Origin: Candidatus Micrarchaeota archaeon
GTDB taxonomy: Archaea; Micrarchaeota; Micrarchaeia; Anstonellales; Anstonellaceae
Direction of reading: 5' to 3'
DNA: 61,685 nucleotides
NCBI GenBank assembly: GCA_964650545.1
Contig: CAZYTZ010000002.1
Span: 1 to 61,685 of the forward strand
How positions within the stretch are numbered: the first letter of the stretch is position 1; each line of letters starts with the position of its first letter. Below, piece after piece: positions 4,345-61,685 of this stretch. The notes under the pieces are model-generated. The model had not been told where the DNA came from and searched no databases. It saw nothing but the letters and a program-made list of their open reading frames with translations. The position numbers were made by a program, and so were the translations under genes.

Positions 4345-4449
4345 TTCTATAACCCGAACGGCATTGCAGCTGGCTCAAATGGGAATGTGTATGTTGCTGA
4401 CAGCGGCAACTTCCGCATCAAAATATTCAATTCTTCCGGAACTAGGCAG
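4243..4449 (+). pseudogene. NHL-repeat protein fragment (no start codon)
   Basis: My own translation of the open frame gives KFDSSGKYIAQFGSIGSGDGQFYNPNGIAAGSNGNVYVADSGNFRIKIFNSSGTRQ*. This is a textbook NHL repeat pattern, about 1.5 repeats only. The frame opens after a TGA at 4240-4242. Confidence 0.5.
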
Positions 4450-4698
4450 TGACGCGCGTCCAATTCCGGCCACAGCCAGGCAACTTCCACTAACTGCGGA
4501 AACTCCGTGGTGCTCTTCGGCCTTTGCATTCCCGGCTTTGGAAGCCGAGGGTGCTGAGAATGAGGCATCCAATCAGTGGCGGGCGCGAATATAGTGTTGG
4601 GCAGGGTCCGCTAGGCACTGGGAGCAACTATGGGCAGGGGTTGCTGCGAAAAGGGCATGTCAGAAACGGAAGGCAGATGTGCCTCTTTATTTTATAGT

Positions 4699-4890
4699 TC
4701 ACGCTTTCGCTTTCTTTTTGTATAAATAGGCTAATGCACTTGTCACCCAAGCAATTACCAATCCAATCCCAATTCCCCGAAGGTACATGCTGTCTGCAAG
4801 ATGCCCCGCTAAAAAGAATATCACACTTAGAACAAACTCAAATAATATGAGCGCCGTGCCCAGCCGTTTCAAAATGCTTTTTCTCTCCAT
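4699..4890 (-). CDS. Small two-TM membrane protein (hypothetical)
   Basis: Internal Met of the 135-aa ORF: MERKSILKRLGTALILFEFVLSVIFFLAG...VIAWVTSALAYLYKKKAKA. It has two hydrophobic helices and a basic tail. Confidence 0.3.
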   Translation of the reverse strand: MERKSILKRLGTALILFEFVLSVIFFLAGHLADSMYLRGIGIGLVIAWVTSALAYLYKKKAKA

Positions 4891-5062
4891 ATTTTTCACC
4901 TTTATTCCTCTCGTTTCATCAAGCATAAACCCGCTCAGCATATATGCCCCCAAAACTGTAAAAAGCCCCTGTTCTTCGTGGGTAAAAGAGACGCGGAAGG
5001 CAGCTCCTAGAAGAGTGTGTAGGAAAGGAGACGGGGGAGTTTGGGGTTTGACGAGGGATAAT

Positions 5063-5308
5063 ATGAAAATGGTTTTGTACGTGGACGATTCCGAATTGAG
5101 CGGCAAGGGATTTCCTTAAAAACGAGCAGTTGGTGTTCGAGGAAGTGAATGTGAAACGCTGGCAGGCGTTAGCCGGCTGCTGAAATGAACGTATCAGCAG
5201 GGCGTTCCAGCATGGGAGGTTATCCGTTCGCACGGTGTCGGGGTGCTGGCTGCTTTTGAGGAAGAATACTGGCGCGGGCAGCTGGACTTGATGCTGCCGC
5301 GCAAGTAA
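5063..5308 (+). pseudogene. Decayed glutaredoxin/NrdH-like gene (frameshifted, CxxC lost)
   Basis: Pieces in three frames read MKMVLYVDDSELSGKGF / FLKNEQLVFEEVNVKRW / VIRSHGVGVLAAFEEEYWRGQLDLMLPRK*. They follow the Grx pattern (K-x-V-x-Y ... F-E-E-V/I-D/N-V ... G-x-L-D-x-L-L). An SD-like GAGGG precedes the ATG. Confidence 0.4.
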
Positions 5309-5419
5309 AAACAATAGCCGCGGAAAGGGGAGGCACAAGCGCCAAGCCGGAAGCGACAAGCTCACAATCATTATCCATGATCCAAATCCCAACTCGGCAT
5401 GGTTGCCATTTGTAGGCGA

Positions 5420-5494
5420 GGCGCGTTCAGCATTGAGCGACGCATCGCTCAATGTCTGATGCATTTTGCTTGCGCAAAATGCACATGCCGCGCC
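5420..5494. repeat. Three-way-junction palindromic element, copy A
   Basis: An outer stem (ggcgcg 5420-5425 / cgcgcc 5489-5494) encloses two hairpins. One is cattgagcga-cgca-tcgctcaatg (5431-5454). The other is tgcattttgc-ttgc-gcaaaatgca (5460-5483). They are joined by a tctga linker. A homologous inverted copy lies at 61265-61334. Confidence 0.6.
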
Positions 5495-29561: not shown

Positions 29562-30017
29562 CTATTGGGGGAAAGTGATGACTTTGGTGAAAAGCACCAC
29601 AGACTTCTGCGCGCGCGTCTCCTTTATTCCTGCAAAGCCATCCTCGACTATTATGTTCTCCCCTTGCGCCAATTCCGGCAAAACGCCGCAGGCACGGAGT
29701 ATCCATTCCGCATATTTGCCTGCAGCTAGCTTGACTTCCCTTTTGCTTGTCGACGCCAGCACAACGAAAGTGGTGTCGAGCATTGCTGCCCGTCCCTGCG
29801 TCACCTGGGACATCTCGTCCTCGCCTGGGTTGTGGACGAATCTGCGCGTGTCGCTTTTGCTCATGTTAAAGGAAATGAAGACTGAAGGTTCCTTCCACCC
29901 AGGAAAGCACCCTGCTGAAGCCGAGAAGAGCCTGTTTTGCAAAAGCTCAAGCCCGCCGCATGGAATCCCGAGCTTGGATGAGTTGCGCGCAATGTGCTCG
30001 AGATAGGTCTTCATCAT
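29562..30017 (-). CDS. Hypothetical protein
   Basis: Start at the internal MMKTYLEH. About 151 aa. No motif recognised. Confidence 0.45.
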   Translation of the reverse strand: MMKTYLEHIARNSSKLGIPCGGLELLQNRLFSASAGCFPGWKEPSVFISFNMSKSDTRRFVHNPGEDEMSQVTQGRAAMLDTTFVVLASTSKREVKLAAGKYAEWILRACGVLPELAQGENIIVEDGFAGIKETRAQKSVVLFTKVITFPQ

Positions 30018-30119
30018 GGCGACGCATCTTTCCTTGCTGGCAGGCTGCAGCGTTTGAAGTCGCATGCTGCCTTTCCTGATTGCAAGTGCTTAAAAACCTT
30101 CAATATAGAATTTACCACA

Positions 30120-31274
30120 ATGAAAAAACTCCATCTCACCCTCCTCGCTGCAGGCATGCTGCTTTTGCCGCTTGCAGAGGGAACAAAAGCAATGCCAAGC
30201 GCGCGCAGATGGCAGCCAGCGGCAGTTTCCAAGTTTTTCCAGCCCTCAGCATCAGCACCGGCTTTGGCGCACCTGAAAGGCGCGATGAAAAATTTCAGCG
30301 GAAATTTTTCAGAAGTGGAAATTCATAGAATTTCCACTGCGACCGGGAAGGAAAGGCAGAGGATGCAGGAATTTCTCATGAAAGACGCAGTTGTGGCATC
30401 AGTGCCGGGAATTGAGGCACTCATGCAAACCTTGCCAGGCCAGTGCATATTGTTCGACCTTTGCAGAATCTCAGGGGAGCGCGGGGCAAGCGACCTTACA
30501 GTGCTTGCTGTTGCAAGAAGGGCATTTGGCAAGTACGCAAAACTGCAGTCGTGCTTCCTGGATGCCTATGCCGCGCTGGCAGGCAACGGGGAGCTTTTGC
30601 CGGAGGAAAAGCTTGCAAATGCCGCAGTGGCATTCAGGATTGCAATGAACGACGGGAAAATCAAGTACGATGAAAACGTGAGGAACCTTGCAAGGGCGCT
30701 CTCTGGCGGCGTGGCAGGCTGCTCGCACTCGGGGATATTGCTGGCAGGCTTTTGCAAGGGAGTGGGGCTTGACATTGCGTTTGGCTATGGCTATTACTCC
30801 ACTGCGCCGGAAGCGCCGGGTCATGTCATTGTCGCGCTGCTCAACGGCAGCGGCATTTCGCACATCCTTGAGCCCACCACCTACCTGTTTGGCGAAATTG
30901 AATTCACCAACTTCAGGGTTGCAGATATGATAGGCATGGCAAGGGTGACTCTTTGGTCGAAAAGGAGCGAGCTTGTGGATAGGTACCGCGGGCTGGAAAG
31001 CCAAATGCTCAAAAAAGGCCCGGAGGGCATTGAGGAGAAGCTTGAGGCTTTCAAGAGGGAAATCGAGGCGATTGACGCAATGGATGCCATGCTGCAAAAC
31101 CCGAAAGACATTGTAAACATGGAAAAGGGAGTGTTCTCCTGGCCCATGTGGAGGGGGATAAACGTCGGCATATATGAAGGCTGGAAGTTCGAGTTCCTGC
31201 ATTATTCAGAATTCCCAGCGCTTTATTCAGGCGAGCCTTATTCGTGTTTTGGGGCGTTTGCATTTGGAAATTAA
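30120..31274 (+). CDS. Secreted transglutaminase-like cysteine protease superfamily protein
   Basis: Signal peptide MKKLHLTLLAAGMLLLPLAEGTKA. The core GCSHSGILLAGFCKGVGLDIAFGYGY...GHVIVALL...ILEPT fits the Cys-His-Asp/Glu transglutaminase-core spacing. Confidence 0.65.
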   Translation: MKKLHLTLLAAGMLLLPLAEGTKAMPSARRWQPAAVSKFFQPSASAPALAHLKGAMKNFSGNFSEVEIHRISTATGKERQRMQEFLMKDAVVASVPGIEALMQTLPGQCILFDLCRISGERGASDLTVLAVARRAFGKYAKLQSCFLDAYAALAGNGELLPEEKLANAAVAFRIAMNDGKIKYDENVRNLARALSGGVAGCSHSGILLAGFCKGVGLDIAFGYGYYSTAPEAPGHVIVALLNGSGISHILEPTTYLFGEIEFTNFRVADMIGMARVTLWSKRSELVDRYRGLESQMLKKGPEGIEEKLEAFKREIEAIDAMDAMLQNPKDIVNMEKGVFSWPMWRGINVGIYEGWKFEFLHYSEFPALYSGEPYSCFGAFAFGN

Positions 31275-48815: not shown

Positions 48816-49943
48816 ATGGCAGATGAAAATTTTCCTCAGAAAAATTTTCAGAAATTCAGCGCGCCGCTGAATTCAGAAGGCAAAATGCACATGCTTACGC
48901 CTGGTCCTGTGGAGCTTGCCGATCCAATCAGGCTTGCCCAGAGCCAGCCAATGATATACCACAGGGGACCGGAAATAAAGGAGCTGATTAAGGGGATTGT
49001 AACTGCGATGAAAAAAGACTTCAACGCGGACCACGTGTTTTTGGTGACCGGCTCTGGCAGCGCTGGGCTGGAAATGGGATGGGCGTGCCTCACAAAGCCT
49101 ACTGACAAGGCGCTTGTCCTTACCAATGGCACGTTTGGCGACAAATTGGCTGCGTGCGCGAAAATCTACTGCAAGGAAGTGCAGGTGGAAACGCAGCCGC
49201 TTGGCAAGGGATGGTCGCTTGAGAGGGCAAAGGAGCTTATAGACAAGTCAGGCGCGCAGATTTTCAGCATGGTTTACAACGAGACGAGCACGGGCGTGCT
49301 GAACAATGCAAAGGAGATTTGCAATTACGCGAAAAGCAAGGGAATGGTGACCATTCTTGATGCTGTTTCTGCGTGGGCGTCAGCGCCTTTGGACATCAAG
49401 GCATTTGGCGTGGATTTCACGGCCACAGGCTCGCAAAAGGCGATTGGCGCTGCGCCTGGCATGGCAATAGTTGCCTGCACGGATGAGGCATTGAAAAGGG
49501 CGGAAGAAATACCTGCTCGCTCCTTCTACCTTGACATGAAGAAGTTCAAGAAGAACATGGACACCTTCCAGACGCCCACCACGCCAGCCGTGTCTGTGCT
49601 TTACTCAATGAAAGCGGCAATTGACTACATCAACGAGCGCGGCGGATTTGATGCGCACAGGGAAAAGCATGTAAAAGCGGCGGAGAAGGCAAGGAAGTTT
49701 GTGGAGAGCATTGGCTACCAGGTGTTTGCAGAGCCTGGCTTTTACTCGCCGTCCATCACGGGCTTTGTGATGGAGGATGCGGACGGCTTTAGGAAAAAGT
49801 TGCGCGAGAATCACAATTTGGTGACTGCGCGCGACTTTGGCGAGCTGAAGGGAAAATTCTTCAGGATTTGCCATTTGGGCAATTTCGACGATGCGCATCT
49901 TGACTATGCGTTTGATGCAATAAGGAAGGAACTGGGAAAGTGA
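48816..49943 (+). CDS. Class V aminotransferase (AGXT / archaeal phosphoserine aminotransferase-like)
   Basis: LTPGPVEL N-terminus and ...ATGSQKAIGAAPG (PLP-Lys context). The ATG at 48816 lies 8 nt after GGAGAGG. The track ORF starts at 48777. Confidence 0.85.
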   Translation: MADENFPQKNFQKFSAPLNSEGKMHMLTPGPVELADPIRLAQSQPMIYHRGPEIKELIKGIVTAMKKDFNADHVFLVTGSGSAGLEMGWACLTKPTDKALVLTNGTFGDKLAACAKIYCKEVQVETQPLGKGWSLERAKELIDKSGAQIFSMVYNETSTGVLNNAKEICNYAKSKGMVTILDAVSAWASAPLDIKAFGVDFTATGSQKAIGAAPGMAIVACTDEALKRAEEIPARSFYLDMKKFKKNMDTFQTPTTPAVSVLYSMKAAIDYINERGGFDAHREKHVKAAEKARKFVESIGYQVFAEPGFYSPSITGFVMEDADGFRKKLRENHNLVTARDFGELKGKFFRICHLGNFDDAHLDYAFDAIRKELGK

Positions 49944-50035
49944 GATGCAGGAAGGGCTGAAGAAGAGGATATCATGAAAATCCAGAAGAGTTGCGCTCTT
50001 CTGTCTTTTCACTCGCAAATGAAGAATGGAGGTAG

Positions 50036-59512: not shown

Positions 59513-59582
59513 GGCGACAATGTTGCGCCAATGCCCTTTAAAGCTTTCCGACCAAATCTCTGTCACTACGAGGTTTAGTTTG

Positions 59583-61227: not shown

Positions 61228-61264
61228 ACTTCTTAAATCCAAGAAACAGTAAGCCCCCGACGAT

Positions 61265-61334
61265 GGACAGCGATGTGCATTTTGCAAAGCAAAATGCATC
61301 AGACATCGAGCGAAGCTCGATGCTGAAGCTGTCC
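61265..61334. repeat. Three-way-junction palindromic element, copy B (inverted relative to copy A)
   Basis: An outer stem (ggacagc / gctgtcc) encloses tgcattttgc-aaa-gcaaaatgca (61276-61298) and catcgagc-gaa-gctcgatg (61304-61322). The reverse complement aligns with 5420-5494, with compensatory stem changes. Confidence 0.6.
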
Positions 61335-61379
61335 AGATTTTGACCCGCAGGTCAAAACGGGGGCTCGAACCGCAGTGAG

Positions 61380-61451
61380 AGCCCCCGACGAGATTTGAAC
61401 TCGTGACATCCAGTTTACGAAACTGGCGCTCTACCGCTGAGCTACAGGGGC
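61380..61451 (-). tRNA. tRNA-Thr (anticodon CGU)
   Basis: Hand-folded cloverleaf: acceptor GCCCCTG/CGGGGGC (one G-U pair), D-arm GCTC-AGCGGTA-GAGC, anticodon arm CCAGT-TTCGTAA-ACTGG, variable loop ATGTC, T-arm ACGAG-TTCAAAT-CTCGT, discriminator T. 72 nt, no encoded CCA. Confidence 0.9.
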
Positions 61452-61456
61452 ACCAT

Positions 61457-61527
61457 CAAATCCGGAGGATTTGGTGGGCAGTTGAGCGAAAGCTCAACTC
61501 CAATCGTCAAATCGCGCGAGCGATTTG
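61457..61527. other. Three consecutive perfect hairpins immediately 5' of tRNA-Thr
   Basis: caaatcc-gga-ggatttg (61457-61473), agttgagc-gaaa-gctcaact (61480-61499) and caaatcgc-gcga-gcgatttg (61508-61527). Their stems resemble the hairpin types in the 5420 and 61265 elements. Confidence 0.5.
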
Positions 61528-61685
61528 GCGAGAATAATAAAACGCCGACGAGGAGATTTGTCCGACCCCATTCCACTTTTTCCGTGGACGCTTTTTCGAG
61601 CGTACCCACCTGGAGCGAGAAAAAGGGTCCTTGAACTCCTAAGCCCCGAAGGGCACTAGATTTCCTGTTGGCAAATCCCGCACGG

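Follow-up and report, generated by a model that had tools for sequence, protein, structure and literature searches.

Micrarchaeota, a group of uncultivated DPANN archaea, have reduced genomes, and hardly anything is known, as far as we are aware, about the mobile DNA they carry. In the 61,685-nt stretch of Micrarchaeota DNA analysed here (hereafter the window), a preliminary description had pointed to two segments of about 70 nt that resemble each other and differ by compensatory changes in their stems. They were read as a conserved three-way-junction RNA or DNA cruciform, and a miniature palindromic mobile element was named as the last alternative. This locus raises the question of what the repeated unit is, and whether its pairing reflects an RNA, a site recognised by a protein or a piece of DNA that moves. 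The comparisons reported below show that a family of such repeats exists, that its structure is conserved and that its insertions are polymorphic, with exact ends between a T and a C (T^C, where the caret marks the insertion point).

Window copies and their host hairpins

The two segments do align as described, positions 5420-5494 of the forward strand with positions 61334-61265 of the reverse strand, and long exact strings are common to both (TTCAGCAT, ATGTCTGATGCATTTTGC and GCAAAATGCACAT). Their folding as three-way junctions was also borne out, as DNA or RNA and on either strand (z = -5.4 to -9.1), both strands folding equally well. Copy A, as delimited by its sequence, spans 5427..5486 (+) and is matched by a covariance model of the family (R1) at 5426-5487 with 71.8 bits. 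Its core is made of T-CAGCAT, a hairpin X (TGAGCGA/TCGCTCA, loop CGCA), ATGTCTGA, a hairpin Y (TGCATTTTGC/GCAAAATGCA) and CAT. Copy B, delimited in the same way, lies at 61273..61326 (-), with a model match at 61272-61327 (78.7 bits), and has the same core except for a stem X reading CGAGC/GCTCG.

At copy A, the outer stem of the preliminary description is formed by ggcgcg (5420..5425, +) and cgcgcc (5489..5494, +), which the empty orthologous sites identify as the two arms of a host hairpin carrying the copy in its loop. The site was compared in four metagenome contigs on which the neighbouring DUF6847 protein is 92-94% identical. One of these relatives, L206, is filled identically and the three others are empty, presenting a plain hairpin that reads GGCGAGGCGC-ACTTC-GCGCCCCTCTCC (GGCGC-ACTTC-GCGCC) in L207 and L208 and GGGGCGCA-TCAC-TGCGCCCC in L209.

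Copy B is hosted by a conserved structured module (61251..61378, -) located 3' of a tRNA-Thr(CGU) gene (61379..61451, -), which lies 53 nt upstream of the copy in the same orientation. In the window, this module is composed of GCCCCCG, hairpin 2 (ttttgacc/ggtcaaaa), tctg, hairpin 3 and ccaTCGTCGGGGGCtt, the latter being a repeat of the 3' end of the tRNA. The same flank is conserved in L190, L191, L196, L203 and L205, all without the element, in the order CGTCGGGGGC, linker, GCCCCCG, hairpin 2 (ttttgNNN/NNNcaaaa), tctg, hairpin 3 and ccaTCGTCGGGGGCtt. Orthologous hairpins 3 exhibit a stem of 6-8 bp of variable sequence and a loop of 3-4 nt (ttc, ttcg, ttcc, tgt or tgtt). According to these orthologous flanks, the outer stem around copy B is made of the arms of hairpin 3, ggacagc (61328..61334, -) and gctgtcc (61265..61271, -), with the copy in a TT^C loop. 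The window thus reads ggacagc-TT[element]C-gctgtcc, and removal of the element restores ggacagcTTCgctgtcc.

Judged from these alignments, the outer stem is host sequence and no part of the element at both window sites. The preliminary description had taken it as covarying, its sequence completely different with pairing kept; since the empty orthologous sites are plain hairpins, these are rather two unrelated host hairpins. Throughout the family, an adjacent outer stem of at least 5 bp was found in only 11 of 86 copies (13%), compared to 2.7% when flanks were re-paired at random, an enrichment of about five-fold that is far from universal. The reading as a conserved three-way-junction RNA or cruciform with a covarying outer stem is therefore not supported, this stem being absent in 87% of the copies.

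The two copies first noticed both exist, but they are not the only ones in the window. A third, divergent copy is found at 48822..48878 (-) (29.9 bits, E = 4e-7), where compensatory changes keep both hairpins, even at basal pairs that are conserved elsewhere. It forms a 54-nt in-frame insertion after codon 3 of a class-V aminotransferase gene (ATG at 48816; Pfam Aminotran_5). The 15-mer gcaaaatgcacatgc at 48880, which has the third copy just upstream of it on the other strand, was considered as a partial copy and rejected, as it is conserved coding sequence (K-M-H-M-L) present in the L046 orthologue. A possible fourth copy, of the same A/U-rich subfamily as the third, lies at 30284..30343 (-), with a weak model match (13.4 bits). 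Its two hairpins stand in tandem, its junction reads UCUGA and its tail CAUC, and its 60 nt are in frame within the ORF 29994..31274.

Several features of the surroundings deserve mention in their own right. The region bordering copy A is variable and of defence/TA type: window positions 4345-5310 harbor no intact gene but only a C-terminal fragment ending at 5308 (...EEYWRGQLDLMLPRK*), and L207 (1500-3144) and L208 encode an AbiEii toxin (Pfam E = 4e-27) and a 190-aa ORF beyond the common fragment. The tRNA-Thr(CGU) 3' module, of about 80 nt, combines GCCCCCG, two hairpins and a repeat of the tRNA 3' end (TCGTCGGGGGCTT), and the 3' strand of the tRNA acceptor can pair with its GCCCCCG. It was seen in the window and in L190, L191, L196, L198, L203 and L205, single in most genomes and in two to three tandem units in L196 and L198. 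This module could be a tRNA-like mini-structure, the scar of an att site or another small tRNA-targeting element. Upstream of the tRNA-Thr gene, the window (61452-61605, -) contains a series of further short hairpins: aaatcgc/gcgattt, gttgagc/gctcaac, ccaaatcc/ggatttg and, lastly, acgct-cgaaaa-agcgt. In L064 and L084, where this last hairpin is situated upstream of other genes, its loop is occupied by a copy of the element.

Structure and distribution of the 53-nt unit

The repeat unit consists of the two inner hairpins only and measures about 53 nt. It reads 5'-(T)CAGCAT-[stem X]-ATGTCTGA-TGC[stem Y]GCA-CAT-3', and the consensus of the alignment (A1) is N-T-CAGCAT-[at least 5 variable bp, loop]-ATG-T-CTGA-TGC-[7 variable bp, loop]-GCA-CAT-C. 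Two hairpins of 10 bp had been proposed, which holds for Y; its basal UGC/GCA is conserved, and the hairpin stacks directly on X. Hairpin X has in reality 12 bp and one bulged U (T in the DNA), UCAGCAUnnnnn facing nnnnnAUG(U)CUGA; its basal 7 bp (UCAGCAU/AUG(U)CUGA) are conserved and the upper pairs, at least five, are free. The junction nucleotides and the bulged U are conserved across copies. Where stem X is short, the inserted unit is 53 nt +/-1. The distance between the ends of the element and the feet of the hairpins is 0-1 nt on one side and 3 nt on the other.

Copies were collected in three ways. A scan with hairpin Y over one genome per species returned about 40 true copies, and a second one with the strict pattern CAGCAT..ATGTCTGATGC..GCACAT, both stems being free, returned 87, all from Micrarchaeota/Micrarchaeia. 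These include copies from 'archaeon DeMMO2_7', LFW-242_1 and Burarchaeum, according to the taxonomy of the class Micrarchaeia in the kingdom Nanobdellati. The covariance model R1, free of the bias of the strict pattern, was then run over 95 loci (647 kb) and brought together about 110 copies, spread over about 20 Micrarchaeota assemblies, so that the search for further copies proposed beforehand turned out positive, with pairing kept. No true copy was found outside the phylum: nine matches in other taxa (eight bacterial and one in Archaeoglobi) are chance matches without hairpins, and the viral contigs searched contained no copies. Numbers per assembly, to be taken as lower bounds, lie between 2 in CAYMOY01, whose contigs measure 0.42 and 0.52 Mb, and about 40 in DeMMO2_7. 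No description of the element was found in the literature.

The family as a whole refutes the possibility that the palindromes of the window are due to chance, or to a local duplication of no wider meaning. Nothing beyond the a priori frequency of short palindromes speaks for it, against the conserved junction sequence of these roughly 110 copies, model scores above 70 bits, and the exact 18-mer ATGTCTGATGCATTTTGC, which occurs in copies A and B only (two matches with up to 3 mismatches for 0.14 expected) and whose count of two was reached in none of 100 shuffles.

Compensatory changes in the inner stems, one of the first observations made on the two window copies, extend to the whole family. 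Among the strict-pattern copies, 99.0% of the cells are paired and 13 of the 22 pairs present changes on both sides; none of 500 shuffles matched this and no slid register comes near. In the copies collected with the model, 98.5% of the cells are paired and double changes affect 20 of the 22 pairs, 'conserved' basal pairs included. The subfamily xGAGCGACGCATCGCTCx' provides a good example, its closing pair being U-A, C-G, A-U or G-C depending on the copy. The inner hairpins are thus structurally constrained, as indicated by their pairing and by double changes that reach basal and closing pairs.

Such covariation in both hairpins, together with the conserved junction nucleotides and bulged U, speaks for a structured non-coding RNA of two hairpins or a three-way junction, with a cellular function and selection on RNA structure. 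In variants of this hypothesis, tRNase Z or the splicing endonuclease would free the RNA from the 3' trailer or the intron of a tRNA, or the RNA would act as a protein-binding or ribozyme motif. The tRNA neighborhood first noticed at copy B is indeed a real tendency of the family, as 11 copies start a few nucleotides (1-6 where counted) past the 3' end or discriminator base of a tRNA, all oriented as the tRNA and several of them orthologues. This constant sense orientation speaks for a strand-specific process of some kind. An RNA role could explain it, as well as the retention of some copies at orthologous sites across genomes, and one copy is located within a tRNA-Cys intron. However, the tendency fits a target preference at least as well, for instance for the T-rich trailer of a gene whose high transcription leaves the non-template strand exposed, where insertion might be favored.

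The remaining evidence weighs against an RNA function, which we consider unlikely. Orientation with respect to flanking protein genes is random (same/opposite 14, opposite/same 14, opposite/opposite 11 and same/same 7, by crude ORF calls), copies in co-directional intergenic regions are antisense in 11 cases vs sense in 7, and no promoter-like flank is common to the copies. Some copies are in frame in coding sequence or between a TATA box and a start codon, their presence differs between close relatives, and their number varies from 2 to about 40 per assembly, while the outer stem that a three-way junction needs is mostly missing. Wobble pairs, with 11 G.U vs 7 A.C in about 1,900 cells (about 0.6%), are far below what is usual for structured RNAs and nearly strand-symmetric, despite a slight forward-strand excess of G.U that persists at reliable positions alone (7 vs 3). 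Loop triplets of hairpin X include both TTC and GAA, and likewise both TTT and AAA.

No known RNA family accounts for the element either, as was first stated and now upheld: Rfam 15 at gathering score finds tRNA only, and no family matches around both copies at E up to 10, the best non-tRNA match being a microRNA model with 16.7 bits for a gathering score of 100. A type III hammerhead was considered because CUGAUGC stands between two hairpins, but the core CUGAUGA ... GAAA with its UH is not present. The element reads CUGAUGC ... GCACAU with CUG paired in stem X, and Rfam hammerhead models gave no match at E up to 10. By inspection, the 'guides' of a C/D-box or H/ACA sRNA would be perfect hairpins and no C/D boxes are in register, which led to the rejection of these classes and of a K-turn. 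Similarly, no archaeal bulge-helix-bulge (two 3-nt bulges on either side of a 4-bp helix) allowing an intron-like excision can be drawn by hand at the ends, with or without the outer stems, the central 4-bp helix being impossible.

Insertion sites and their empty counterparts

The case for mobility rests on presence or absence between genomes that are about 80-94% identical. Filled and empty sites could be paired at seven places, and the insertion is exactly at T^C in most of them. One of them is a clean indel of the core between L179, which is syntenic with window positions 53-59.5 kb, and the empty window site ccaaaT^Ctctg (59557..59558, +). L179 reads ctttccgaccaaa[TCAGCAT...GCACAT]tcttcccactacgagg for ctttccgaccaaatctctgtcactacgagg in the window, between a TATA-like box and the start codon of aIF2-beta. 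L046, syntenic with window positions 47.9-54.5 kb at about 80% identity, is informative in both directions. At the position of the empty window site 50017..50018 (+) it harbors a composite of about 110 nt in total, made of a copy, a 12-bp outer stem and one extra hairpin, and the empty window sequence gca^aat is an exception to T^C. Conversely, the third window copy is absent from its L046 orthologue.

Among other loci, L167 carries a copy inside the intron of a tRNA-Cys(GCA), the orthologous intron of L182 being empty (GAGGGTTT^CACCCCC), and in both a further copy abuts the 3' end of tRNA-Cys. A different repeated module, CCCCCTGAGGGGTT^CACCCC, holds a copy at the marked position in no fewer than six loci and lacks it in no fewer than three, and in L015 one copy is nested in another, at AT^GTCTGA. 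The places where copies are met thus include the intron of a tRNA gene, a promoter, the N-terminal part of a coding sequence and the element itself.

Among 71 non-redundant copies, the base preceding CAGCAT (-1) is T in 71, T occupies position -2 in 61% and nothing is conserved further upstream; the base following GCACAT (+1) is C in 61% and G in 24%. Terminal inverted repeats (TIRs) are not present, as the 5' CAGCAT and the 3' GCACAT are not reverse complements, each hairpin being palindromic internally. No target-site duplication (TSD) was observed in the filled/empty pairs, with at most a 1-nt ambiguity of T. The element is not a classical MITE, because it has neither TIR nor TSD.

Alternatively, each hairpin might be an inverted-repeat core site in double-stranded DNA to which a tyrosine recombinase or some other dimeric protein binds. 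The copies would then mark the borders of cassettes, as dif-like sites do for gene modules or attC sites in integrons. With arms of 10-12 bp around a spacer of 3-8 bp, the hairpins resemble the core sites of recombinases in geometry, the variable region next to copy A contains an AbiEii toxin gene in relatives, and in L172 an inverted pair of copies brackets a two-gene ParE-toxin cassette between the genes of ribosomal protein S7 and EF-2. This last case is however the only cassette-like one seen, most copies being solitary and bounding nothing, and clean 53-nt insertions represent the gain of the site itself without any cassette. The R boxes (RYYYAAC/GTTRRRY) that form the attC signature are absent. 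Moreover, spacer-proximal positions of the arms vary freely yet stay complementary, which a folded single strand explains and a dimeric protein reading the sequence does not. Such a recombination site is very unlikely.

A few observations on these loci may be added. At L172 1798-2538, the bracketed cassette comprises the ParE-family toxin (Pfam E = 1e-7) and a small upstream ORF, and the whole resembles a composite or module-like structure. Micrarchaeota genes for tRNA-Cys and tRNA-Asp (L167 1737-1946, -; L182 1575-1733, -; L148 4697-4828, +) have long introns of 58-165 nt in the anticodon loop, made of hairpin modules, and are detected by ARAGORN only when introns are allowed; L167 also presents a partial tRNA-Cys duplicate followed by its own copy of the element. 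A second repeated hairpin module, CCCCCTGAGGGGTTCACCCC, occurs in L029, L015, L065 and L078 and in the flanks of L066, L100, L132, L157, L169 and L175, and further modules recur in these genomes (such as cccatcgggcccgttt, attgtaattcgc..gcgaattacaat and aaaatccaaaaaaggatttttt). Their intergenic DNA gives the impression of a patchwork of hairpin modules and recalls the BIMEs of bacteria.

Candidate mechanism and related systems

The explanation best supported is the miniature palindromic mobile element. We are probably dealing with a non-autonomous mobile DNA of about 53 nt, specific to Micrarchaeota and depending on hairpins of single-stranded DNA. Its hairpins would be the structure recognised by a trans-acting enzyme working on single-stranded DNA, and insertion takes place between T and C, or sometimes T and G or T. 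Preferred targets would be DNA that is likely single-stranded or extruded, such as the loop of a hairpin already in place or the bases that directly follow a tRNA gene. Propagation would be limited to copies with intact hairpins, and the apparent 'covariation' would follow from this; hairpin-templated correction of palindromes or quasi-palindromes during replication may add to the perfect pairing. The most likely enzyme would be an HUH/Y1 transposase of the IS200/IS605-RAYT type.

A TnpA profile, built from IS608, Sulfolobus and ISDra2 sequences confirmed in PDB, was searched against the six-frame ORFs of 1.53 Mb, of which about 0.65 Mb come from the surroundings of copies, at the 95 Micrarchaeota loci. 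The profile picked up a positive control from bacteria and had a sole match in Micrarchaeota, a decayed ORF of 63 aa in L077 (5662-5853, +) with a Pfam Y1_Tnp E-value of 1.8e-4 (22 bits, just under the cutoff of 23). This ORF presents the HLxWxxKYR motif, ends with PDDVPD* where the HUH motif is expected, and continues in frame to about 5960, decayed by in-frame stops but with the LKG motif retained. An element copy (L077 5563-5619) lies 43 nt upstream of the fragment in the same orientation, with no copy downstream. This adjacency is a lead, not a proof, as its chance expectation is roughly one in fifteen given the choice of loci. In the 1.53 Mb, no intact transposase turned up near copies, nor did any autonomous parent bounded by X at one end and Y at the other, and a search for relatives of the L077 fragment returned the fragment itself only. 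Clustering of 566 neighboring ORFs revealed no recurrent enzyme, only pilin-like, HhH-GPD and TPR proteins and Cys-rich ones without Pfam match. The latter family, of about 540 aa with internally repeated halves rich in C-x-x-C, is the commonest protein family in the 8-kb neighborhoods of the element, 16 nt to 4 kb from copies (L110 1502-3112, L127 1491-3176, L176 1240-4447 and seven others).

Overall, the element is closest to a REP or to a miniature element of the IS200/IS605 type, although, compared feature by feature, it falls outside each of the families considered here. Both IS200/IS605 and REP/RAYT-type elements are handled as single-stranded DNA by Y1 HUH transposases. Like REPs and BIMEs, the element is a multicopy extragenic palindrome of tens of nucleotides, with a conserved hairpin foot and compensatory variation above it, a mismatch or bulge in a stem, neither TIR nor TSD, mosaics with other hairpin modules, and a Y1 HUH enzyme presumed to recognise the hairpins in single-stranded form. 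Other insertion elements are known to target the loops of REPs as well. It differs from REPs and REPINs in being a fixed tandem of two different hairpins rather than a single hairpin or an inverted doublet, and its consensus (TCAGCAT...ATGTCTGA + TGC...GCA + CAT) is devoid of a GTAG-type 5' tetranucleotide. Unlike REPs, it resides in an archaeal (DPANN) host, no RAYT gene flanked by copies was found in the DNA searched, and it inserts into other hairpins and even coding sequence.

With IS200/IS605 elements and PATEs, it shares the lack of TIR and TSD, subterminal hairpins on one strand, an extrahelical T as in the ends of IS608, a strand-specific insertion beside a short target with precise ends, and the decayed Y1_Tnp beside one copy. 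On the contrary, PATEs measure several hundred nt compared to 53 nt, and the cleavage sites of IS608 are situated about 19 and about 10 nt from the hairpin feet, compared to 0-1 and 3 nt for the ends of the element. The target appears to be only T^C rather than a defined tetra- or pentanucleotide, and the 1.53 Mb contained no parent IS (TnpA Y1 and/or TnpB) with common ends and X and Y at opposite ends.

Rickettsia palindromic elements (RPEs) and Correia, ERIC and RUP elements are likewise small palindromic repeats with no known mobiliser in reduced genomes. RPE-type sites, in intergenic DNA, RNA genes and in frame in protein genes, are matched by the third window copy and the copy in the tRNA intron. 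However, RPEs are bacterial and 100-150 nt long, Correia, ERIC and RUP possess TIRs and/or TSDs, and none of them is related to the element in sequence. DPANN archaea have been reported to carry integrons, and an attC site is also a folded single-stranded hairpin, conserved at its base, variable at its top and with extrahelical bases. It is nevertheless a single hairpin, whereas the element has two, without R/L boxes (GTTRRRY; read from alignment A1), and the copies do not form arrays of cassettes with one copy each and a common orientation.

The element is thus a new, phylum-specific insertion element of 53 nt and two hairpins that nests in host hairpins, of a kind that is already known. It is conceivable, if rather doubtful, that the double hairpin is the minimal substrate of an undescribed DPANN system of single-stranded DNA transposition targeting hairpin loops, whose enzyme would be unlike a recognisable IS200/RAYT one or would come from the host archaeon or a virus; or else that this mobile DNA is also processed from tRNA trailers or introns into a functional small RNA. 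If an enzyme is found, it could represent a compact hairpin-guided DNA insertion system.

With its 53 nt, exact ends and taste for hairpin loops and tRNA flanks, the element would rank among the smallest mobile units known in archaea. It provides a simple marker of strain-level variation in Micrarchaeota MAGs, as well as a warning for annotation, since what looks like a covarying structured RNA in these genomes can be a selfish DNA hairpin inside a host hairpin. Finally, it reshapes promoters, tRNA introns and the N-termini of proteins.
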